Of a stretch of 64,000 nucleotides of DNA, positions 6,034 through 63,355 are shown piece by piece. The notes beneath the pieces were generated by a model, which saw nothing but the letters and a program-made list of their open reading frames with translations, was not told the DNA's origin and made no database searches. Origin of the DNA: a virus (lineage: Duplodnaviria; Caudoviricetes). A program made the position numbers and the translations under genes. Position 1 is the first letter of the stretch, and the number at the start of each line of letters is the position of its first letter. The stretch lies in the IMG/VR virus record IMGVR_UViG_3300033076_001145, positions 96,001 through 160,000 of that record; one strand, given 5' to 3'.

Positions 6034-6363
6034 ATGAAATACATAATCAAAGAATCACAAATAAATAATGTTGTATTTTGGTATTTGGATAATCAGGATT
6101 TTATTAAGATTGAAAGGAGTCGTAATATTTATTTTGTTAATTCAGAAGGGGATGAATATGCTCAAATAAGACTTGATAAAGATGATGGCTGGTGTTTTAT
6201 TAATATTAATTTAATTAGAGAAATTTCTTCTTTCTTTTCTTTACAACCTTATGATTCTAAAGAAGTTATCGGCAGATGGGTTGATAATACCCTCCGAATG
6301 AAGGTCACAAACACCCAATATTCAAGAGGTAAAGGCCAGAAAAGGTTGATAATACCCAAATAA
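6034..6363 (+). CDS. Family B small protein (LDNQDF...YAQIR...WVxNTLxMKVTNT) with spacer-encoded tail
   Basis: Paralog of 6379, 56395, 58889, 59643, 62716, 63026. Confidence 0.8.
   Translation: MKYIIKESQINNVVFWYLDNQDFIKIERSRNIYFVNSEGDEYAQIRLDKDDGWCFININLIREISSFFSLQPYDSKEVIGRWVDNTLRMKVTNTQYSRGKGQKRLIIPK
6280..6363. CRISPR. CRISPR-like mini-array: 36-bp repeat 6280-6315, 29-bp spacer, truncated repeat from 6345
   Basis: GTTGATAATACCCTCCGAATGAAGGTCACAAACACC - spacer - GTTGATAATACCC. Confidence 0.7.
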
Positions 6364-6378: not shown

Positions 6379-6696
6379 ATGAAATATCTAATTAAAGAGT
6401 CACAAATAAATAATGTTGTATTTTGGTATTTGGATAATCAGGATTTTATTCAGATTAATAAAGGTAATAAGATATATTTTGTTAATTCGGAGGGTGACGA
6501 ATATGCTCAAATTAGATATGATAAATCAGATGGCTGGTGTTTTATTAATATTAATTTAATTAATGAAATTTCTTCTTTCTTTTCTTTGCAACGCTCTGAT
6601 TCTGAAAAAATTATTGGTAAGTGGGTTGAGAATACCCTCCAAATGAAGGTCACAAACACCGCTTTGTTTGAAAAGTTGTATGATGATTTTGGTTGA
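6379..6696 (+). CDS. Family B small protein with spacer-encoded tail
   Basis: Tandem near-duplicate of 6034..6363. Confidence 0.8.
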   Translation: MKYLIKESQINNVVFWYLDNQDFIQINKGNKIYFVNSEGDEYAQIRYDKSDGWCFININLINEISSFFSLQRSDSEKIIGKWVENTLQMKVTNTALFEKLYDDFG

Positions 6697-7396: not shown

Positions 7397-8059
7397 CTAT
7401 CTTATGTCGTAGAAGTGTTTTACATTTCTTTTTGAATAACGGTCATTTAAAAAATCCCATAGTTGATTAAATCTGTTTTCATCATCACCACATTCTAATT
7501 CAAAGTTTTCACATACATCTTCTATTAAGTTTGATGTGACAAGATGATTAAATTTATATGGTGTCATTGCATTTAATTGTTTTTTCTTATCTGTGTATCT
7601 TTTTGAAGCCACCTTTAAAACATATTGATATATCTGTTCAAGAGTTTCCATATCTATCCTTCTTTTGAAGTAAATAGGTAGTTCTTTTTCTTCCCTCAAT
7701 ACTGATTCATTAATTACATTTCCCAAATTATCATATTTTAAAAGTTCAGTTTCTATAAAAACATCAGCATTTTTTTTCCTCACATCCCATTCAGTCATCC
7801 AAGTAGGACAAACAACAATATTTCCTGAAGTCCATTTATCAATATCTCTTGATATTTTTGTATCAAACCACGACTCAATGTTTGCCGCAGTATCATCAGA
7901 ATCAAAATAAATTTTAAGTAAAGGTTTATTATTATAAGTTGATTGTTCTATAAATGAAACCTCATCATATAAAACATGAATAATTTGCTTAACAAATTTT
8001 AATTTGTGTCCCTCGGATTCTTCCCTTAATATTCTTCTTATGTTTTCTTGTAGGTTCAT
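7397..8059 (-). CDS. MNLQE.IRRILREE-leader protein
   Basis: Leader shared with 8077, 8771, 9112, 11724, 12418; start inferred at MNLQEN. Confidence 0.65.
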   Translation of the reverse strand: MNLQENIRRILREESEGHKLKFVKQIIHVLYDEVSFIEQSTYNNKPLLKIYFDSDDTAANIESWFDTKISRDIDKWTSGNIVVCPTWMTEWDVRKKNADVFIETELLKYDNLGNVINESVLREEKELPIYFKRRIDMETLEQIYQYVLKVASKRYTDKKKQLNAMTPYKFNHLVTSNLIEDVCENFELECGDDENRFNQLWDFLNDRYSKRNVKHFYDIR

Positions 8060-8076
8060 ATTTCTTCTTCTTTGTA

Positions 8077-8769
8077 TTAACAATCTCCTATACTAACATC
8101 TATAGTATGTCCCCTCACTAAATTATTTCCTAATCTGTGTATAAGGGTGCTTATGTTATATATCGCTTGTCTTGTTTTTTGTTTGTTCACAAAACTATCA
8201 TCAGATAAATTAGGATAATATTTTGGTATTTCCACATATAGTTTTAACGAATGTAGAGTTGGTTTAATTTTAAAATCACATATATTTTCCATATCAGGAA
8301 CATCGAGTCTCATTATTGTATCAACAATGAAAATCATTTCCTTTTGTGTTCCAGTAAAACCAAGAACCTTATATAAATTTTCAACCCCTCCAAACATTTT
8401 TGCGGTTTGGTAAATACCCATATCAGAAACCAAATCTTTAATACTTTCTTGGTCTGAGGTCTCTTCCCTTAATATTGACTCATTTAACGGTTCCTCGTCC
8501 AATTTTGAATTTATGTATTTAATTAATGGCGCATCAAATTTATATACATCTTGGGACATGTTGTAATCTTTTAACAGTTCTTTGTTTGACGAAATAAGAT
8601 TTTGAATTGCGTCATAAAAGGCTTCACTTCTATTCTTTCCCCAACTTAAAGAAATTTTAACATCCCTAACCAACCGCTCAAGTTCATTAGCGGTCACCCT
8701 TCTTCTAATGTAATAAGGTAGTTCAGTTCCTTCCCTTAATATTCTTCTTATGGATTCTTGTAGGTTCAT
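8077..8769 (-). CDS. MNLQESIRRILREG-leader protein
   Basis: Leader plus internal repeat 'NESILREE'. Confidence 0.65.
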   Translation of the reverse strand: MNLQESIRRILREGTELPYYIRRRVTANELERLVRDVKISLSWGKNRSEAFYDAIQNLISSNKELLKDYNMSQDVYKFDAPLIKYINSKLDEEPLNESILREETSDQESIKDLVSDMGIYQTAKMFGGVENLYKVLGFTGTQKEMIFIVDTIMRLDVPDMENICDFKIKPTLHSLKLYVEIPKYYPNLSDDSFVNKQKTRQAIYNISTLIHRLGNNLVRGHTIDVSIGDC

Positions 8770-8770
8770 A

Positions 8771-9115
8771 TTATGTATTTGACACTAATTTTTTATATCT
8801 ACTTTTAATTCTATCTTTATAGTAATCTTTTAAACTTTCCATAACCTCACCATACCATTGTGAATCTTCTGGCATTGTACTATATAGTTCGTAATGAATC
8901 CCATCCATTAAAATTGAAATTGTTACATCTATAAACCTATTTAAACTCATAATACTCCCATCTTCTTTATTTGTATTGCGTAACATATTTGATGACATAT
9001 CTAAAGACTCGCTAAACTCCCTCTCTAAATCATTGTTAGGGACTCTACGTCTAATCATCAGGATAGGTTTGGACTCTTCCCTTAGTATTCTTCTTATGGA
9101 TTCTTGCAGGTTCAT
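8771..9115 (-). CDS. MNLQESIRRILREE-leader protein
   Basis: Leader; RRR motif shared with neighbours. Confidence 0.65.
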   Translation of the reverse strand: MNLQESIRRILREESKPILMIRRRVPNNDLEREFSESLDMSSNMLRNTNKEDGSIMSLNRFIDVTISILMDGIHYELYSTMPEDSQWYGEVMESLKDYYKDRIKSRYKKLVSNT

Positions 9116-9369
9116 TTCTTTTTCTTCTTAACACAATTAGGATATTTCTTACCAAACATTGTCTTCATTCCTTTTTGGGTATATCCCGCCCAACACTTTT
9201 CTTGGAGTTCAGATTTATGATTTTCATTTCCACATTTATGACATGTGTATGGGTCGTGTCCGCCTTCAGATAAATTCCAAGACCATCCACACTCCTGACA
9301 AACAATTTTTTTATTTTTGTTATGTAATTCTTCCAATATTATTCTTCTTATGGTCTGTTGTAAATTCAT
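9112..9369 (-). CDS. Small Cys-rich protein (CxxC..CxxC zinc ribbon plus KCWxGY...PNCV motif)
   Basis: CQEC/CHKC; start at MNLQQ after TATTTATA. Confidence 0.6.
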   Translation of the reverse strand: MNLQQTIRRIILEELHNKNKKIVCQECGWSWNLSEGGHDPYTCHKCGNENHKSELQEKCWAGYTQKGMKTMFGKKYPNCVKKKKK

Positions 9370-9430
9370 ATTATTATAAATATCAATTAAAATAAACTGA
9401 AAAAAGTTTTTCAATTTAAGTTTTCTTCCC

Positions 9431-9442: not shown

Positions 9443-10228
9443 ATGGACAAAGTATTAAAAGATTTCATATTCCAACAACTATATGAAGAATTGAGTAATG
9501 TGGAGATTATTCCATATAACTACTCCATTTGGTTTATTGACCGAAAAAACGAATATTGGTATTTTGAATTTGAAAAGGATGGAATGTTGTGGTGGAGATA
9601 TGGATTCTTTCTCAGTTTTTTTAAAGTGTTCTCCCTTAGTGATACCGATTTTGAACCCATTCTATCCGCTTGGGTGGAAGAGGTCTTAAATCATAAGGTA
9701 TCTACAACAGGTCGGGAGAAACCAAGGCAACTTTTTCTGGTGGAAGAGGTCCTAAATCATAAGGTATCTACAACCCAAACTTGTTCATATGGTTTGCCTG
9801 AGTGGGTGGAAGAGGTCTTAAATCATAAGGTATCTACAACCCACAATTGCCACGATATTCTACCAGCAGTGGTGGAAGAGGTCCTAAATCATAAGGTATC
9901 TGCAACTCGGCATTTTGACAACCGTTCTCATCCGTTGGTGGAAGAGGTCTTAAATCATAAGGTATCTACAACTTCTCTGAATTCAGGCCAAATGATTGGT
10001 ATGGTGGAAGAGGTATTAAATCATAAGGTATCTACAACCCAAGTCAGGGAGAACAAAGAATCGGTCATGGTGGAAGAGGTCCTAAATTATAAGGTATCAA
10101 CAACTGAGGACCGCATTTCTCAAAACCCAAGGAAGGTGGAAGAGGTCTTAAATCATAAGGTATCCTCAACCTACTTCGATTGGGATAAAAAGGTAATTTT
10201 GGTGGAAGAGGTATTAAAACAAAAATAA
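9443..10228 (+). CDS. Family A protein: ~80-aa domain followed by 22-aa units (VEEVLNHKVSTT + 10 variable aa) encoded by an in-frame CRISPR-like array
   Basis: ORF stays open through 8 repeat-spacer units. Confidence 0.8.
   Translation: MDKVLKDFIFQQLYEELSNVEIIPYNYSIWFIDRKNEYWYFEFEKDGMLWWRYGFFLSFFKVFSLSDTDFEPILSAWVEEVLNHKVSTTGREKPRQLFLVEEVLNHKVSTTQTCSYGLPEWVEEVLNHKVSTTHNCHDILPAVVEEVLNHKVSATRHFDNRSHPLVEEVLNHKVSTTSLNSGQMIGMVEEVLNHKVSTTQVRENKESVMVEEVLNYKVSTTEDRISQNPRKVEEVLNHKVSSTYFDWDKKVILVEEVLKQK
9673..10228. CRISPR. CRISPR-like array A1: 8 full 36-bp repeats plus truncated 9th; 8 unique 30-bp spacers
   Basis: GGTGGAAGAGGTCTTAAATCATAAGGTATCTACAAC at 9673, 9739, 9805, 9871, 9937, 10003, 10069, 10135; partial at 10201; exact 66-bp period. 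Confidence 0.85.
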
Positions 10229-11723: not shown

Positions 11724-12050
11724 TTAACGACATTCCCTCTGATAAGTATTCTTTAAGTGCTCGGTGAATTTTTTACTAGCATAATCCACCATTAACTTAT
11801 AAGACTCTCCCCACTCAACAGTATTTTCATCCATATCGGAGAAGAAGTCCCAATACATAGATGTTATGGCTTTTTCAATTACCGTTTCAACATATTGTTC
11901 CTTTGACAATCCACAAACATTATATTGAACTTTAACTTCTTTAATTGCAAAATCAATCTGCCAATCAATTGCGTGTAGTCTTCTTTTAACACTATTTGGG
12001 ACCTCTGTTGATTCTTTTAATACTCTCTTTATGGATTCTCTGAGTTTCAT
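11724..12050 (-). CDS. MKLRESIKRVLKES-leader protein
   Basis: Leader motif; TATTTATA upstream. Confidence 0.6.
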   Translation of the reverse strand: MKLRESIKRVLKESTEVPNSVKRRLHAIDWQIDFAIKEVKVQYNVCGLSKEQYVETVIEKAITSMYWDFFSDMDENTVEWGESYKLMVDYASKKFTEHLKNTYQRECR

Positions 12051-12082
12051 ATTATTATAAATATATTTATATTTATTAAATT

Positions 12083-12421
12083 ATGAAGGATGACAATCAA
12101 TTAGAGGAACTTGTATTTGCATATCTTAATGCTCAGGACTTTGAAATTATCCATAAAGAAGGTTATCATAAATACGCATACTTTGTTTATGACAAGGATG
12201 ACGCTCACGCTCAGATAATGTATCACAAAACCTTTGTTGTGATTTCTAAAGAGTTGTCGGATGAAATTAATTCTTATTTCAATGTTCCTTCAGGTGATAA
12301 CGCATCAGTTGAAATTAAAAATTGGATTGAGTCAAAGTTAAACACTAAAATTGATATTTGGGATGTTAAAATATATGGTGGAATGATGGGCGATGCCTGG
12401 TTATCTGTTAATGAGGATTAA
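12083..12421 (+). CDS. Family B paralog without recognisable array
   Basis: YLNAQDF...HAQIMY...EINSYF...WIESKL. Confidence 0.65.
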   Translation: MKDDNQLEELVFAYLNAQDFEIIHKEGYHKYAYFVYDKDDAHAQIMYHKTFVVISKELSDEINSYFNVPSGDNASVEIKNWIESKLNTKIDIWDVKIYGGMMGDAWLSVNED

Positions 12422-13135
12422 AATATCATATCTTCATCCATTTTATCCTGAATATCTTGTTGAGCAATAGGTAATAGTTCATTCATAATGATGTCATATA
12501 CACCTGGTAAATAAACTTCATCATACCAACTAAACAACTCTTCAACACTATCAAATCTTGTTTTGTCTTGTAACACTTTGAAATAGTCTCCTTCCCCAGC
12601 GATTTCAACAACTACCTGTTTACCAATTTTTCTACTTCTATCCTCCAAAGAAAACCAATCAATTTCAACAGGTGTATAATCAAGTCCATCCCAAAATGGT
12701 GTGGCCATTGCCGTAATAAGTTCAGTATAATTAGGGAGAAATTCTCCCGTTTTAATCTCACCATCCCAATAAAAAATACCATCCAAATTTGTTTGTATAT
12801 TAAATTCATTGTAGGTATCTTTCAATTTACCTTTTTCTAAATTTTCAATTAATAATTCGTTCGCAATTTTTGAATTGATTTCAATTTTTGAAAGTTTGAC
12901 TAATTGTGTCGTACTAACACCAAGGTATTTTTTTGCTTCATATATACCAACCTCGTCAATTAGTTCAAGAATAGAATTTTGAAATTTATCTTCAGAATCT
13001 TCTCTTAATATTTTTCTTATGTTATCCCTTAGATTCATATCATTATAAATACCACTTAAAATGAAAACCCCACTGAGTAGCGAATTCAATGGGGTTAATG
13101 TAGCCTAAACTACAGCGGTCCTAAGCCCACTTTCT

Positions 13136-13651
13136 TTAATCATAATCTTTTAAATTATACTTATCAATTATCTGTTGGAATATTTGATTTCTATATGTTT
13201 TTGCTAATGTTTCTCTTTTTGGTATAAAAGAATATCCAAATCCCGAACTTCCACTCATTCCTACGACTCTCCAAACAACTCTTCCGTCTACGTAATTAAC
13301 TTTTCGTAATCTAGCATCAAAAGAATATTGCATGTCATTTTTCCTACCAAATTTAAACTTACCTAATTTTTTTTCATCTTTACCAAAATCCTCCAAATTT
13401 AAGTGTTGGACAAGATTGTCATCAAAATACATATTAACCTCATTACCTTCTCTAATATAATAAGGTCCAACATTTTCATTTTTGTAAAATTCCTTTAGGT
13501 TTCCACCATAAACCATTTTTATGTAGTTTGAGACACTACCAAACATTCTTTCAATCTGATACCAACCTATTTCATTATAAAGACCTTTTAAGTCGTTATC
13601 TGACGGCTCTTCAGTTTCTTCTTTTAATATTTTCTTAATTAAATCTTTCAT
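13136..13651 (-). CDS. MKDLIKKILKEET-leader protein
   Basis: First 13 aa identical to 31277 ORF. Confidence 0.6.
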   Translation of the reverse strand: MKDLIKKILKEETEEPSDNDLKGLYNEIGWYQIERMFGSVSNYIKMVYGGNLKEFYKNENVGPYYIREGNEVNMYFDDNLVQHLNLEDFGKDEKKLGKFKFGRKNDMQYSFDARLRKVNYVDGRVVWRVVGMSGSSGFGYSFIPKRETLAKTYRNQIFQQIIDKYNLKDYD

Positions 13652-55365: not shown

Positions 55366-55439
55366 TGCGCCCTGCAGGACTCGAACCTGCGACCTCCTCT
55401 TTATGAGAGAGTTTTTCTAACCAACTGAAATAAGAGCGC
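55366..55439 (-). tRNA. tRNA with CAT anticodon (Ile2-like or elongator Met)
   Basis: GCGCTCT/AGGGCGC acceptor, CTCATAA loop, GCAGG-TTCGAGT-CCTGC T-arm. Confidence 0.85.
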
Positions 55440-55994
55440 TTAATTCAACCATTTTCTAACAGTATTGTCAGTAACTCCGAACTTTCGTGCGACTGAACTA
55501 TAACCTTCGTTAGCCACCATTTCAAATATAACTGATTTTTCCGGTCTGTCAACCTTTCTTCTTGATTTGTGAGCACATTCTTTACATTTATTCCCCCACT
55601 TACTTATCTCACATCCACAATCAGAGCAGTTATATTTTTTTGGTTCAGCTAAAGTAATCCATTTATCACTCTTTTCCAAATCATATTTTTCAATTTTTTT
55701 ACTAACATTTTCAATCATTAAGTCAGGAGAATGAACTTCTCTGTGACAATTTGCACACAAAACCATACATTTTTCAAATTCAGACATAATCCACTCCATA
55801 TTTGAATTAGATAGTGTTCTTGAATCTAATTGACTTTCTTTTGTATCTTTATCAATGTGGTGGAATTCTAAAGCCGCTAAATTTTTATTATATCCACAAA
55901 TTTCACATCCACCTCCTTTTAAATTAATTAAATGAGTTTTTCTCTTCAAAGACCTCATTACCTGATATTCATAAGTGTTCCCTTGTTTTCTCAT
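55440..55994 (-). CDS. HNH endonuclease with zinc-ribbon and HTH C-terminus
   Basis: CEICGY...LEFHH...LCANCHREVH; CSDC...CKEC; YSSVARKFGVTDNTVRKW. Confidence 0.85.
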   Translation of the reverse strand: MRKQGNTYEYQVMRSLKRKTHLINLKGGGCEICGYNKNLAALEFHHIDKDTKESQLDSRTLSNSNMEWIMSEFEKCMVLCANCHREVHSPDLMIENVSKKIEKYDLEKSDKWITLAEPKKYNCSDCGCEISKWGNKCKECAHKSRRKVDRPEKSVIFEMVANEGYSSVARKFGVTDNTVRKWLN

Positions 55995-56394: not shown

Positions 56395-56802
56395 TCACTT
56401 GGATGGTAGTCTCAACCTTCCTTCAAAAGGGTTAATGTAAAATTTGATATTTGTAACTTTCTTTTTGAGGGTGTGCTCAACCCATTTACCAATAAATTCT
56501 TTAGAGTCATTGTGTCCCATAGAATAGAAAGAAGAAATTTCTTTGATTAAACCATCACCGATAAAACACGAACCGTCGTCTTTATCATATCTAATTTGAG
56601 CATATTTGTCACTTTTTGAATTGACAAAATAAATTCTATTTTTTTCTTTAATCTGAATGAAGTCCTGATTGTTTAAGTATTCAAATACTGAATTATCTAA
56701 TTCTGACTCTGACTGAGGAATTGTGTCTCCACCACCTTTTTTAATAATTCTTTTTACTAGACTTAGTAAATCTGATTCTGTCAATCTAATTACCTTTTTC
56801 AT
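56395..56802 (-). CDS. Family B protein with MKKVIRLTESDL leader and spacer-encoded tail
   Basis: YLNNQDF...YAQIRYDKDDG...WVEHTLKKKVTNI-KFYINPFEG-RLRLPSK. Confidence 0.75.
   Translation of the reverse strand: MKKVIRLTESDLLSLVKRIIKKGGGDTIPQSESELDNSVFEYLNNQDFIQIKEKNRIYFVNSKSDKYAQIRYDKDDGSCFIGDGLIKEISSFYSMGHNDSKEFIGKWVEHTLKKKVTNIKFYINPFEGRLRLPSK
56399..56481. CRISPR. Degenerate mini-array: partial repeat ending 56416, 29-bp spacer, repeat 56446-56481
   Basis: GGATGGTAGTCTCAAC ... GATATTTGTAACTTTCTTTTTGAGGGTGTGCTCAAC. Confidence 0.55.
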
Positions 56803-56859: not shown

Positions 56860-57873
56860 TTATTTTACAATCTTCGTGGTATATAATTTACCTGAGTCAT
56901 CATTAATTAGAATGACATAGGTTCCCTGACTTAGATTTTCGGAATTAATTGTCATCATGTTTGTTGTGTATTTGTTTTGATAAACACATCGTCCATCAAC
57001 TGACATAATCTTAATGTTTCCGTTATTAGATGGTGTAACCACATTAATATTATCCATCACAGGATTTGGACATACCTTAACATTATTGGTCATTGTTTCT
57101 TCAACACCAACAGTATAACTATCAACAACACTCAATGTCCATTCAGTCATAATACCACCAGGATACCAACCTGTTGAGTCAATGGTGAATGTTAAACAAG
57201 TATCAGCAAAACATCCATCAAATGAATAAGCCCATACACAGATTTGATATGTTCCAACACCTCCATAAGTTGTTGTTGGGAATGCAACATTTGCTGAGTC
57301 ACCATTACCAAAATTCCAAGTATATCCAATGCAGTTTGAAGATTGGTTAATCAAAAAGATTACATTATCTTCGATTACAACTGAATCAGAAGAAACAAAA
57401 GACATATCCAAGTATGGGGTCGTTTCAAGTTGTCCGTCACAGTTATTATCAATACCATCACACATTTCCCATGCTCCGGGATATGTATTTGGGTTAAAAG
57501 CATCACAATCATATTCATCATTCCAACCATCATTATCACTATCAATACCAGTAACCAAATCAATTGAGTATTCATTAACTGCTCCGAAGATAACAATACC
57601 ACCATCGCATTGGGTCATCCCAACACAATTGGTCGCACATAGATTAACATAAACACTATTACCAACCACAGGAACCGATGTTGTGTAAACACCTGATGGG
57701 TCGGAAGTAAAAACCAATTCACCTGTTGTTTGGTTTAAGGAGTCAATATACATACCTGTAACGGTATATGGACAATTTGTATCACCAATAACGGTCAAGT
57801 TAATTGGGAATTGAGAAAACACATTAAGTGTTAGGATGCTCATAAGAGCGAAAAGAAAAGTTTTTAGTTTCAT
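56860..57873 (-). CDS. Secreted protein with MopE-like metal-binding motif, PKD domain and T9SS type A C-terminal sorting domain
   Basis: Signal peptide; D.DNDG..DCD...YPGA.E.CDGIDNNCDG; YTWNFGNG; V.PNPV.D.I.V...DGR.V...L..GTY.I...KIVK. Confidence 0.8.
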   Translation of the reverse strand: MKLKTFLFALMSILTLNVFSQFPINLTVIGDTNCPYTVTGMYIDSLNQTTGELVFTSDPSGVYTTSVPVVGNSVYVNLCATNCVGMTQCDGGIVIFGAVNEYSIDLVTGIDSDNDGWNDEYDCDAFNPNTYPGAWEMCDGIDNNCDGQLETTPYLDMSFVSSDSVVIEDNVIFLINQSSNCIGYTWNFGNGDSANVAFPTTTYGGVGTYQICVWAYSFDGCFADTCLTFTIDSTGWYPGGIMTEWTLSVVDSYTVGVEETMTNNVKVCPNPVMDNINVVTPSNNGNIKIMSVDGRCVYQNKYTTNMMTINSENLSQGTYVILINDDSGKLYTTKIVK

Positions 57874-59253: not shown

Positions 59254-59550
59254 TTAATAACCAACAATTGGACTAGCAACCTCCACATTAATAGATTCAA
59301 TTCCGAGTTTATCTTCAATCCATTTATTGATTACACTAATGGAATCCCCATAATCTAAAGAAAAGAATTTGCTGACTTCTTCGGCCAAATCATAGTGTAT
59401 TGTGCACCATCGGTCTTTTGGGAGGTATTTAATCTGAGCAAATTCATCATCTTCTGAATTAACAAAATATATCCTATACTTCATTTTAATTACAACAAAG
59501 TCCTGTCCATCCAAATAAGAAAATATTACTCGTTCTAAATGTTTGTCCAT
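59254..59550 (-). CDS. Family B paralog without recognisable array
   Basis: MDKHLERVIFSYLDGQDF...WIEDKL. Confidence 0.7.
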   Translation of the reverse strand: MDKHLERVIFSYLDGQDFVVIKMKYRIYFVNSEDDEFAQIKYLPKDRWCTIHYDLAEEVSKFFSLDYGDSISVINKWIEDKLGIESINVEVASPIVGY

Positions 59551-59570
59551 GATTATAAATACATTAGTTA

Positions 59571-59714
59571 GGTATTCTCAACAGAGCAGTGGAAACGTTT
59601 TCAGAACTATAGGTGTTTGTGACCTTCATTTGGAGGGTATTCTCAACAAGAGATGAATAGCGAATACCTTCCCGCTTGGGTGTTTGTGACCTTCATTTGG
59701 AGGGTATTCTCAAC
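59571..59714. CRISPR. Mini-array: two identical 36-bp repeats (59612-59647, 59679-59714), partial repeat ending 59582, spacers of 29 and 31 bp
   Basis: GGTGTTTGTGACCTTCATTTGGAGGGTATTCTCAAC x2. Confidence 0.85.
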
Positions 59715-59951
59715 CCATTTACCAATAACTTGTTCAGAATCAGAGCTTTGCAAAGAAAAGAAAGAAGAAATTTCTTTAACTAAATTAGTATGAATAAAAC
59801 ACCATCCATCATCTTCGTCATATCTAATTTGAGCGTATTCGTCACCTTCTGAACTAACAAAAAAAATTTTATCATTACCCATATCAATCTGAATGAAGTC
59901 TTGGCTATCCAAATAAGAAAATATTACTCGTTCTAAATCTTTGTCCATCAT
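59643..59951 (-). CDS. Family B protein with spacer-encoded tail
   Basis: WVENTLQMKVTNT-QAGRYSLFISC*; stop lies within the next repeat. Confidence 0.8.
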   Translation of the reverse strand: MMDKDLERVIFSYLDSQDFIQIDMGNDKIFFVSSEGDEYAQIRYDEDDGWCFIHTNLVKEISSFFSLQSSDSEQVIGKWVENTLQMKVTNTQAGRYSLFISC

Positions 59952-60466
59952 AACTTAATCCCAGTATTATATATGGTTTCCCAATTATTTTTCTCACAAT
60001 AATCCAAAAAGTCCTTTGGTGAATATCTATATGACTCCTCAATCCCATATACCCATGAAACAAACTCAGAGCAATACATCTTATCCTGTTCATGGTTCAA
60101 TGGTTTTTTATTCCACTTACCAGTTAATAATTCAATCGGTTGTTTGATAATTAATCCCTCAAAGTCATAAGCCGTTAATCCAACTTTGCTCATGGCTTTA
60201 ACCGCAATTTTCTTTTCAGCAATTACCTTTGGTCTTCTTTGGATGATGAAGTTATATTGGTATTCTTTAAGCCAGTTTTCAAATGGTTTAACATTAACTC
60301 CATTATCCTGAGCATCAATGATATATGGTTCACCCCATATCCAAATGAAAAGAGCTGTGTGATTTATTTCAGACTTTGTTGCCCATCTTATGGCTCTACT
60401 CAACCAACTTTTTCCACGACAATGTAACACATCACCGGTTTTTAATTCATCTATATTCAAACTCAT
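59948..60466 (-). CDS. Permuted papain-like NlpC/P60 (YaeF/YiiX-like) amidase
   Basis: LKTGDVL, NHTAL, G..YDF, MYCSEFV. Confidence 0.8.
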   Translation of the reverse strand: MSLNIDELKTGDVLHCRGKSWLSRAIRWATKSEINHTALFIWIWGEPYIIDAQDNGVNVKPFENWLKEYQYNFIIQRRPKVIAEKKIAVKAMSKVGLTAYDFEGLIIKQPIELLTGKWNKKPLNHEQDKMYCSEFVSWVYGIEESYRYSPKDFLDYCEKNNWETIYNTGIKL

Positions 60467-62656: not shown

Positions 62657-62700
62657 ATTCCAAGTATAGGATATGAACTTTACAATGTCAATTGATTTTT

Positions 62701-62787
62701 ATTTGGAGGGTATTATCAACGGATTGAAAAATTGCCTTTGCTCAATGCCATGGTGTTTGTGACCTTCATTTGTAAGGTATTCTCAAC
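62701..62787. CRISPR. Mini-array: partial repeat 62701-62720, 31-bp spacer, repeat 62752-62787
   Basis: ATTTGGAGGGTATTATCAAC ... GGTGTTTGTGACCTTCATTTGTAAGGTATTCTCAAC. Confidence 0.75.
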
Positions 62788-63012
62788 CCACCTACTGATA
62801 ACTTGTTCAGAATCAGAGCGTTGCAAAGAAAAGTAATAAGAAATTTCTTTAATTAAATCCAAACCAATATAACACAAACCATCATCATATCTAATTTGAG
62901 CAAATTCATCATTCTCTGAATAGGCAAAATAGATACTATCATATTTTTTAATCTGAATAAAGTCCTGACTATCCAAATAAGAAAATAATACTCTTTCAAA
63001 ATCTTTGTACAT
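62716..63012 (-). CDS. Family B protein with spacer-encoded tail
   Basis: WVENTLQMKVTNT-MALSKGNFSIR*. Confidence 0.8.
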   Translation of the reverse strand: MYKDFERVLFSYLDSQDFIQIKKYDSIYFAYSENDEFAQIRYDDGLCYIGLDLIKEISYYFSLQRSDSEQVISRWVENTLQMKVTNTMALSKGNFSIR

Positions 63013-63025
63013 GATTATAAATATA

Positions 63026-63109
63026 TTAGTTGGGTATTCTCAACCACTTGTCAATATTCATATACGCATCGGTGGTTTTTGTAACTTTCATTTTTAAGGT
63101 ATTCTCAAC
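63026..63109. CRISPR. Mini-array: partial repeat ending 63044, 29-bp spacer, repeat 63074-63109
   Basis: GGGTATTCTCAAC ... GGTTTTTGTAACTTTCATTTTTAAGGTATTCTCAAC. Confidence 0.65.
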
Positions 63110-63355
63110 CCACCTACTGATGACTCTTTGGGATTCGTCTCGTCCTAAATTAAAGAAAGAAGAAATTTCTCTATTTAAATCGATATTAATAAAACAAACA
63201 CCTCTATCTTCATCATATCTAATTTGAGCAAGGTCGTCACTTTCTGAATTAATAAAGAATAAACTTGTGTCATTACCTGTAATAATAAAATCCTGATTGT
63301 CAAGATACTTAAATATTACTTTATCAAATTGTGATTCGGTTATAAGGTATTTCAT
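63026..63355 (-). CDS. Family B protein (MKYLITESQ leader) with spacer-encoded tail
   Basis: WVENTLKMKVTKT-TDAYMNIDK-WLRIPN*. Confidence 0.8.
   Translation of the reverse strand: MKYLITESQFDKVIFKYLDNQDFIITGNDTSLFFINSESDDLAQIRYDEDRGVCFINIDLNREISSFFNLGRDESQRVISRWVENTLKMKVTKTTDAYMNIDKWLRIPN

Follow-up and report, generated by a model that had tools for sequence, protein, structure and literature searches.

Why does a small gene of a phage end in a repeat-spacer array of the CRISPR type, and in which order did the two spacers arrive? The question is raised by positions 59571-59714 of the window, by which we mean the whole 64,000-nt stretch of DNA that was analyzed (bases 96001-160000 of a 208,634-nt IMG/VR record). 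The record comes from an uncultured jumbo phage from a lake, is 71% complete and has a GC content of 32%. The first-pass annotation had described two identical 36-nt repeats with spacers of 31 and 29 nt and had taken the 31-nt spacer to be a recent acquisition that displaced an older, stop-free tail. The repeats and spacers were confirmed to the base at the 3' end of a minus-strand gene, and the features of the locus are as follows.

59948..60466, minus strand: Peptidase_C92 gene, 172 aa, upstream of the array-bearing gene (PF05708, E value of 1e-11); a synteny marker of the locus
59643..59951, minus strand: gene for the small protein of family B, 102 aa, from the ORF list; 1032 relatives at E<=1e-20
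59714->59679, minus strand: repeat R1, 36 nt, translated in frame; the sole repeat that belongs to the folded protein
59678->59648, minus strand: spacer S1, 31 nt, gene-proximal
59647->59612, minus strand: repeat R2, 36 nt, identical to R1 at 36/36 positions, now out of frame; provides TGA 59645-59643
59611->59583, minus strand: spacer S2, 29 nt, distal, untranslated at present
59582->59571, minus strand: truncated terminal repeat, the repeat's first 12 nt
59564..59582, minus strand: truncated repeat plus conserved junction, reading L-R-I-P-N-stop in the S2 register
59254..59550, minus strand: next tandem paralogue, 98 aa, no recognizable array

R1 is read in frame as 12 residues (V-E-N-T...T-N-T) which form residues 80-91 of the 102-aa protein encoded by ORF 59951..59643. 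Residues 92-101 are contributed by S1, and the last residue and the stop span the S1/R2 boundary. Since S1 is 31 nt long (3n+1), the frame slips by one and the protein terminates at a TGA made up of the third to fifth bases of R2, as had been proposed for the 31-nt spacer. The distal spacer had been said to encode the canonical tail of the family, and this too was borne out: read in the register of R2, S2 is stop-free and continues through the truncated repeat as L-R-I-P-N to the TAA at 59566-59564, and a similar L-R-I-P-N-type ending was found in genes 63355..63026, 6034..6363 and 56802..56395. On the 3' side of the truncated repeat come TAACTAA and, at 59550, the start codon (ATG) of the next paralogue, and the junction at 59564..59582 recurs after most family-B genes (44 related phage loci). 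All family-B repeats of the 208,634-nt record lie inside the window. S1 and S2 are unrelated to each other, in keeping with the generic description of CRISPR arrays as repeats of 23-50 nt with unique spacers of similar length. No cas genes and no leader were found beside the array in a Cas1 search and among ORFs of up to 807 aa; what lies upstream of the array is the gene body.

Only one of the three frames of the family-B repeat is open, and the effect of the repeat on the protein is set by the length of the spacer before it. After a 3n+1 spacer the repeat gives an immediate TGA, after a 3n+2 spacer it reads L-R-I-P-S-K-stop (L-R-I-P-N-stop where a stub follows), and a 3n spacer lets translation continue through the next unit. 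The protein is therefore terminated whatever the length of the spacer.

Both spacers are captured chromosomal DNA of one bacterial family and come from two source lineages. In 596 Gb of prokaryote genomes, the 27-nt core of S1 had a single exact match (chance expectation of ~3e-4 by our own estimate), which was in the Flavobacteriales metagenome-assembled genome (MAG) G001 on contig CALJKR010000035.1. The match covers 31/31 nt of the spacer, or 32 with one base shared with the repeat end (G001:C35:7306-7337), and is placed between recO-like and OmpA-like genes, where it spans positions -5 to +26 of a 106-aa ORF. The surroundings are those of an ordinary chromosome, with rlmN-, holB-, recO- and ompA-like ORFs (named by reading their translations). 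S2 was matched at 29/29 positions, or 30/30 with the boundary base, in two other genomes (G074:C1:328023-328052 and G120:C34:2076-2105) and at 97% and 93% identity in G144 and G055, respectively. Its source lies within an alpha-L-fucosidase gene (PF01120 ORF), and the segment of that gene containing it is 88-89% identical among these four genomes. S2 was absent from G001, where the alpha-L-fucosidase segment was only 72% identical over ~100 nt and in a different place, and the S1 region of G001 had no homologous region in G074, G120, G144 or G055. Because each source region lacks a close counterpart in the lineage that supplied the other spacer, S1 and S2 represent two separate captures, from two bacteria of one family.

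The other arrays of the phage gave similar matches. The 31-nt spacer of gene 63012..62716 matched G001 at 31/31 positions, two plus-strand family-B spacers matched a glmS-like gene (identified by motif; 97%) and a 952-aa ORF (30/31), and several spacers of family A, the second repeat family of the phage, matched host DNA at up to 30/30 positions. The GC content of the spacers (41%) was close to that of the host (42%) and unlike the 32% of the phage, and no second copy of any spacer was found in the 208-kb phage record. For one spacer, a host residue Q is retained in the tail of a relative and is replaced by K in the copy of window gene 6379..6696 (proteins P0058 and P0061). This difference coincides with the one position at which the window spacer departs from the host gene, indicating that spacers mutate after capture.

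These host matches refute one alternative, namely that a coding segment was simply duplicated in tandem and then diverged without any foreign DNA being captured. Such an origin would suit a repeat that encodes a conserved part of the fold and that diverged paralogues retain at the protein level only. It is at odds, however, with repeats that are identical while the spacers between them have nothing in common, and with spacers that are both exact copies of bacterial chromosomes and have a host-like GC content.

The peptides encoded by the spacers bear little relation to host proteins. Antisense orientation to host ORFs was seen in each of the first three family-B spacers, but among 11 spacers the orientation relative to host genes was antisense in 7, sense in 3 and ambiguous in 1, which is not significant, and the idea of a strand bias was dropped. 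Mimicry of host peptides was also rejected, as in-frame sense copies made up just 2 of the 11 spacers, about the level expected by chance. The spacer peptides are mostly out-of-frame or antisense readings of host genes and are effectively random sequences rather than host mimics.

The translated spacers avoid stops. Among 26 distinct proximal family-B spacers from the window and 44 related phage loci, 25 were stop-free in the translated frame (P = 6e-4 against a null of 0.683 obtained from random host 27-mers), whereas the other two frames of the same spacers were stop-free in 15 and 16 cases. The lengths of these spacers were 29 nt (11 spacers), 31 nt (10), 30 nt (4) and 26 nt (1), the last of which retains the 29-nt frame, and old 29-nt spacers common to diverged phages drift like codons. 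The eight family-B spacers in the window (29, 31, 29, 31, 31, 29, 30 and 29 nt) reproduced the set of lengths given by the first-pass annotation. Its statement that family-A spacers are always 30 nt was correct for all 17 in the window, but in three related phage genomes there were 25 of 30 nt and one of 27 nt, a single exception among 43 family-A spacers over four phage genomes (a single-protein search for family A had returned three distant loci only, and related phage genomes were taken instead). All 43 were nevertheless 3n in length and none contained an in-frame stop. The family-A repeat (window 9739-9774) is open in one frame and by eye reaches TAA within 5-8 codons in the other two, so that the long repeat protein would be cut short by a spacer of 29 or 31 nt; no such spacer was found among the 43. 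With family A strictly 3n and stop-free and family B mixing 29, 30 and 31 nt, spacer length depends on family and frame, as had been suggested.

Relatives of the 102-aa protein were sought among 5.8 billion proteins, and the best 120 of the 1032 found were inspected. About 15 of these 120 had a tail of fewer than 10 residues, and stop avoidance is therefore not absolute. The view that family B swaps a single C-terminal peptide proved too narrow, because arrays of 3-4 units occur among family-B relatives and 32 of the best 120 read in frame into a second repeat. Among DNA arrays, the proximal spacer was 31 nt long in 5 of the 6 whose second repeat is full and in 5 of 23 with a stub (Fisher P ~0.01, calculated by hand). 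As the protein database contains many two-unit proteins of the 30-nt type, sampling may account for this excess of proximal 31-nt spacers in arrays of several units.

Taken with the anatomy of the locus, the host matches make it probable that 59571-59714 is a two-unit CRISPR-type array in the 3' end of a phage gene, filled from host DNA by capture. The exact copies of host chromosome upheld the capture part of the acquisition claim; the claim that S1 is the newer spacer is an inference from the arrangement of the array and from its relatives. In a one-unit array the coding repeat alone is full length. No matter which of its ends is attacked first, an integration that duplicates it would place the new spacer on the gene side and move the older one away from the gene. 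At this locus the terminal copy is a 12-nt stub, whereas R2 is a complete and identical copy of R1, suggesting that S2 came first and S1 later. As S1 and S2 are both exact copies, sequence decay says nothing on their relative age.

The one-spacer allele of the locus predicted by this order was sought in IMG/VR, in JGI metagenome contigs and among the best 120 of the 1032 relatives, and was not found. Exact searches of IMG/VR with S1 and S2 gave no match, as did searches of the JGI contigs with the repeat/S2 junction and the S2 core. The best 120 relatives contained no S2-like tail (top similarity of 4/10 residues), and the nearest of the 1032 homologous proteins was just 81-84% identical.

A comparable pair was found at two other loci. 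L096 consists of a gene, a repeat, a 29-nt spacer and a stub, and L095 of a gene, a repeat, a 30-nt spacer, a repeat, the same 29-nt spacer as in L096 and a stub. The two differ by exactly 66 nt, that is, by one repeat plus the 30-nt spacer, on the gene side. All three repeat copies carry the same rare variant, and the shared distal spacer matched G001 at 29/29 positions. L095 and L096 thus form a clean one-unit/two-unit pair that differs by one spacer and one duplicated repeat, which we read as growth rather than loss. For the locus at 59571-59714 itself, P0002 and P0008 are syntenic orthologues preceded by the same Peptidase_C92 gene and a 203-aa gene, and their tails have two other 31-type endings that differ from the S1 tail. 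The L095/L096 pair and these three syntenic orthologues with three different proximal spacers back the order S2 then S1. Further support comes from a four-unit relative, L038, where identity to the repeat drops away from the gene (34, 35, 33, 30 and 23 of 36), a decay with distance that favors the same order.

Two observations on turnover were made elsewhere in the family. Gene 63012..62716 and L095 are syntenic orthologues which have in common a degenerate terminal repeat and a downstream membrane-protein gene, and their spacer sets differ, the former (window 62685-62787) having one 31-nt spacer and the latter the 30-nt and 29-nt spacers described above. In the protein groups P0006/P0030 and P0016/P0033/P0035/P0037, the tails agree in their first residues and diverge afterwards, as would happen if single-base indels within a spacer turned a 30-type ending into a 29-type ending.

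Alternatively, two one-unit arrays, carried by paralogues or by co-infecting phages, might have undergone homologous recombination through their repeats to give the two-unit array, in which case S1 would not necessarily be the newer spacer. The material for such an exchange is present, since the window has at least nine paralogues with near-identical repeats, and the family is mosaic: P0002 and P0024 have the C-terminal half and tail in common while their N-terminal halves differ, and the repeat and 29-nt unit common to L095 and L096 stand before different downstream sequences. Recombination can therefore move units too. We nevertheless regard it as unlikely to have built this array. Terminal repeats retain 12-20 nt only, yet R2 is full length and the same as R1; both full repeats of L095 carry the same rare variant, which fits duplication and not a crossover of a truncated with a full repeat; and S1 was found nowhere else in this phage or in IMG/VR.

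No Cas1 was detected in the record, in which no ORF exceeds 807 aa, or in five related phage records, including three complete ones (294-322 kb). Cas1 was present in 14 of 151 genomes of the host family, including G001 and G055. In G001 it lies between a Cas9 with RuvC_III and HNH domains and a Cas2-sized ORF, and G055 has a cas9-cas1-cas2 locus of the same size (L097) together with an intact array of 11 repeats. In G074 and G120, the exact sources of S2, Cas1 was not seen in what are incomplete assemblies. The host type II-C repeat is 47 nt long, with spacers of 30 or 29 nt, and its two ends are those of the phage repeat: 8/9 of the first 9 bases and 7/7 of the last 7 bases of the family-B repeat agree with it, including the unusual ACACC end, and none of 500 shuffles aligned as well. 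The family-A repeat aligns to the host repeat in the opposite orientation. The type II-C repeat of G055 (L097:3903-4718) ends in ACACC, as does family B, and that of G001 (L083:23-69) in ACAAC, as does family A.

As the phage has no Cas1 and the repeat ends of the host-family type II-C system are those of the phage repeat, the likely writer is the host type II-C Cas1-Cas2 complex, acting in trans on phage DNA. Precedent exists in type II-C/VI-B pairs, where the type II-C Cas1-Cas2 fills 36-nt VI-B arrays in trans, many spacers being self-derived, and where tolerance of the integrase for the difference in repeat length was inferred (Hoikkala et al. 2021, PMC8092290). In those genomes the 47-nt type II-C repeat occurs alongside VI-B, and the published pairs have repeat-end motifs in common (PMC8092290). 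Two points stand against a type II-C writer. With a repeat of 47 nt in the host and 36 nt in the phage, an integrase of the ruler type would have to tolerate the difference. In addition, capture assisted by Cas9 is expected to leave a PAM, and no common motif was seen by eye within 12 nt on either side of the 11 protospacers, a small sample. The 10 spacers of the type II-C array in G055 included none that matched the phage.

An integrase encoded by the phage itself and not recognizable as Cas1 could also write spacers, and with a record that is just 71% complete and with most genes of these phages lacking a known family, there is room for one. We consider this quite improbable, given that the three complete relatives have the same arrays and no Cas1 and that the two ends of the phage repeat copy those of the host type II-C repeat.

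The resemblance to known arrays raises the different possibility that the array acts as RNA, as a guide or decoy for a host Cas13b or Cas9, and that its translation is incidental. The closest counterparts are the Cas1-less type VI-B (Cas13b) arrays of Flavobacterium columnare, which likewise have a 36-nt repeat, spacers of ~30 nt and no adjoining adaptation genes, and in which spacers derived from the host itself are frequent (Hoikkala et al. 2021, PMC8092290). The family-B repeat is identical to the F. columnare VI-B repeat (PMC5395568, Table 4) at 22/36 positions, counted by eye, with ends of GTTG and ACACC in the former and GTTG and ACAAC in type VI-B arrays, and the last 12 nt of the family-A repeat are, also by eye, those of the VI-B repeat. 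S1 is complementary to the sequence around the start codon of a host ORF. None of the spacers came from the phage itself, and selection against self-targeting would give the same result.

Several findings nevertheless speak against a function as RNA, which we judge improbable. The repeat RNA folded no better than shuffled sequences (z of 0.6 and -0.1; the MFE of -2.5 kcal/mol corresponded to z = 0.63, with 149/200 shuffles folding at least equally well), with no significant sign of the conserved internal stem of VI-B repeats. A strand bias is also lacking among the spacers, and one-unit arrays end in a stub of 12-20 nt, from which an RNA of a spacer plus a full repeat cannot come. The avoidance of stops in the translated frame but not in the other two and the conserved frame-keeping lengths are likewise at odds with incidental translation. 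A pattern search of 151 host-family MAGs, in which arrays assemble poorly, gave no 36-nt array with GTTG and ACAAC ends, and no PAM was seen. With no fold, no strand bias, stub-ended one-unit arrays and no canonical host arrays, a guide or decoy role is not supported. A search for a host effector with the Cas13a (NF038188) and Cas13d (NF038189) profiles gave no match from either.

The phage array also differs from each known system in other respects. Unlike the VI-B arrays of F. columnare, it is phage-borne, lies within an ORF and is translated, its traced spacers are all from the host and none from phage, and it belongs to a phage without a cas13b-sized gene. The host type II-C arrays (G055 L097 and G001 L083) share its repeat ends and have spacers of 30 and 29 nt, with Cas1-Cas2 present there, but they have a 47-nt repeat, are non-coding, have a leader next to cas2 and run to 11 units. 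The host type II-C repeats are recognized by a length of 47 nt, pairing with a tracrRNA and a position beside cas9-cas1-cas2; the phage repeat is 36 nt long and has only the ends in common with them.

Compact, cas-less CRISPR arrays in huge phages were reportedly described by Al-Shayeb et al. in 2020. Viral repeat mimics are known as Racrs (PMC10651486) and as viral crRNA-like arrays (bioRxiv 10.1101/2024.10.29.618823). All of these are phage-borne units that resemble host repeats and lack adaptation genes, and some of their spacers are host-directed. They are, however, non-coding RNAs that load host Cas proteins. The units described here are protein codons which are filtered for open reading and have neither RNA structure nor strand bias.

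Two further comparisons concern the writing reaction. Nivala et al. are said to have reported in 2018 off-target ("neo-CRISPR") spacer integration by Cas1-Cas2, which resembles the present case in its use of a repeat-like site outside a canonical array and in the duplication of the target. Neo-CRISPR integration is rare and laboratory-induced, whereas the integration considered here is recurrent, conserved over hundreds of phage genes and shaped by reading-frame selection. Phage diversity-generating retroelements likewise rely on a dedicated DNA-writing reaction to vary the C-terminal part of a phage protein; in contrast to them, the 208-kb record contains no template repeat, and host-chromosome sequence is inserted rather than substituted. 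No description of CRISPR-type arrays read as protein was found in the literature that was searched.

Capture from the host is our preferred explanation of the locus, and it would proceed as follows. During infection, Cas1-Cas2, most likely that of the host type II-C system in trans, would insert a 29- to 31-nt fragment of host chromosome at the lone full-length repeat, which also encodes the last helix and strand of the protein and would be duplicated upon integration. The locus would first have consisted of the gene with a repeat, S2 and the truncated repeat, the 29-nt S2 having come from a bacterium like G074 or G120 and having set the truncated repeat to read L-R-I-P-N-stop, the usual ending of the family. 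The 31-nt S1, from a bacterium like G001, would then have been placed between two copies of the repeat. From that point, the TGA in the second repeat (bases 3-5) would stop translation, leaving a protein that ends 11 residues past the coding repeat, and the old tail would fall silent. Each spacer would supply a new random peptide of ~10 residues, whatever use the phage may make of it.

Our bolder suggestion, to which we give rather less than even weight, is that repeat-like codons are kept at the gene ends of a large family as landing pads for the host CRISPR integrase, with captures writing new random peptides of ~10 residues, or silencing old ones, on a conserved small protein and the repeat serving as a frame filter. 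If so, a virus would be using CRISPR adaptation to diversify its proteins, at the expense of its host. CRISPR adaptation is known as the way in which cells store non-coding memories of invaders. The same reaction appears here to act on the virus's own genes, with host DNA as the raw material and a product that is read as protein. The locus at 59571-59714 provides a two-step example, since captures from two lineages stand side by side and the second would have switched off the tail written by the first. Should the host type II-C integrase be the writer, the arrays would record the hosts infected by the phage lineage and would offer a natural example of cross-talk between an integrase and a shorter repeat; the question would then be whether phages exploit this integrase for protein diversity or merely tolerate it. 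What is new here is the two-lineage history of the locus, the one-unit/two-unit pair, the syntenic turnover and the agreement of the phage repeat with the host type II-C repeat at both ends.

The protein that carries the array has no family in Pfam or PHROG. An AlphaFold2 model (pLDDT of 91.5) places the residues encoded by the repeat at the end of the last helix and in the strand that follows it. Structural neighbors were sought with Foldseek against the PDB (best E value of 0.2) and with VIA-align (best Z of 4.7), and neither result was meaningful.

Some other features of the window were observed. A second multigene family of small and medium proteins, with an N terminus of the M-N-L-Q-E-S-I-R-R-I-L-R-E type, occupies window 7397-9414 and 11724-13651 and is interleaved with array-bearing genes. 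Gene 56860..57873, which encodes a secreted protein, contains a 743-nt stretch (window 57098-57843) with 93% identity to G043:C52:9225-9967 of a host-family MAG, reflecting either a recent gene exchange between phage and host or a phage contig binned into the MAG. Finally, a tRNA gene at 55366-55439 on the minus strand (Rfam, 63.6 bits) directly adjoins a 184-aa ORF at 55440-55994, also on the minus strand, which has many Cys/His motifs and resembles an HNH endonuclease.
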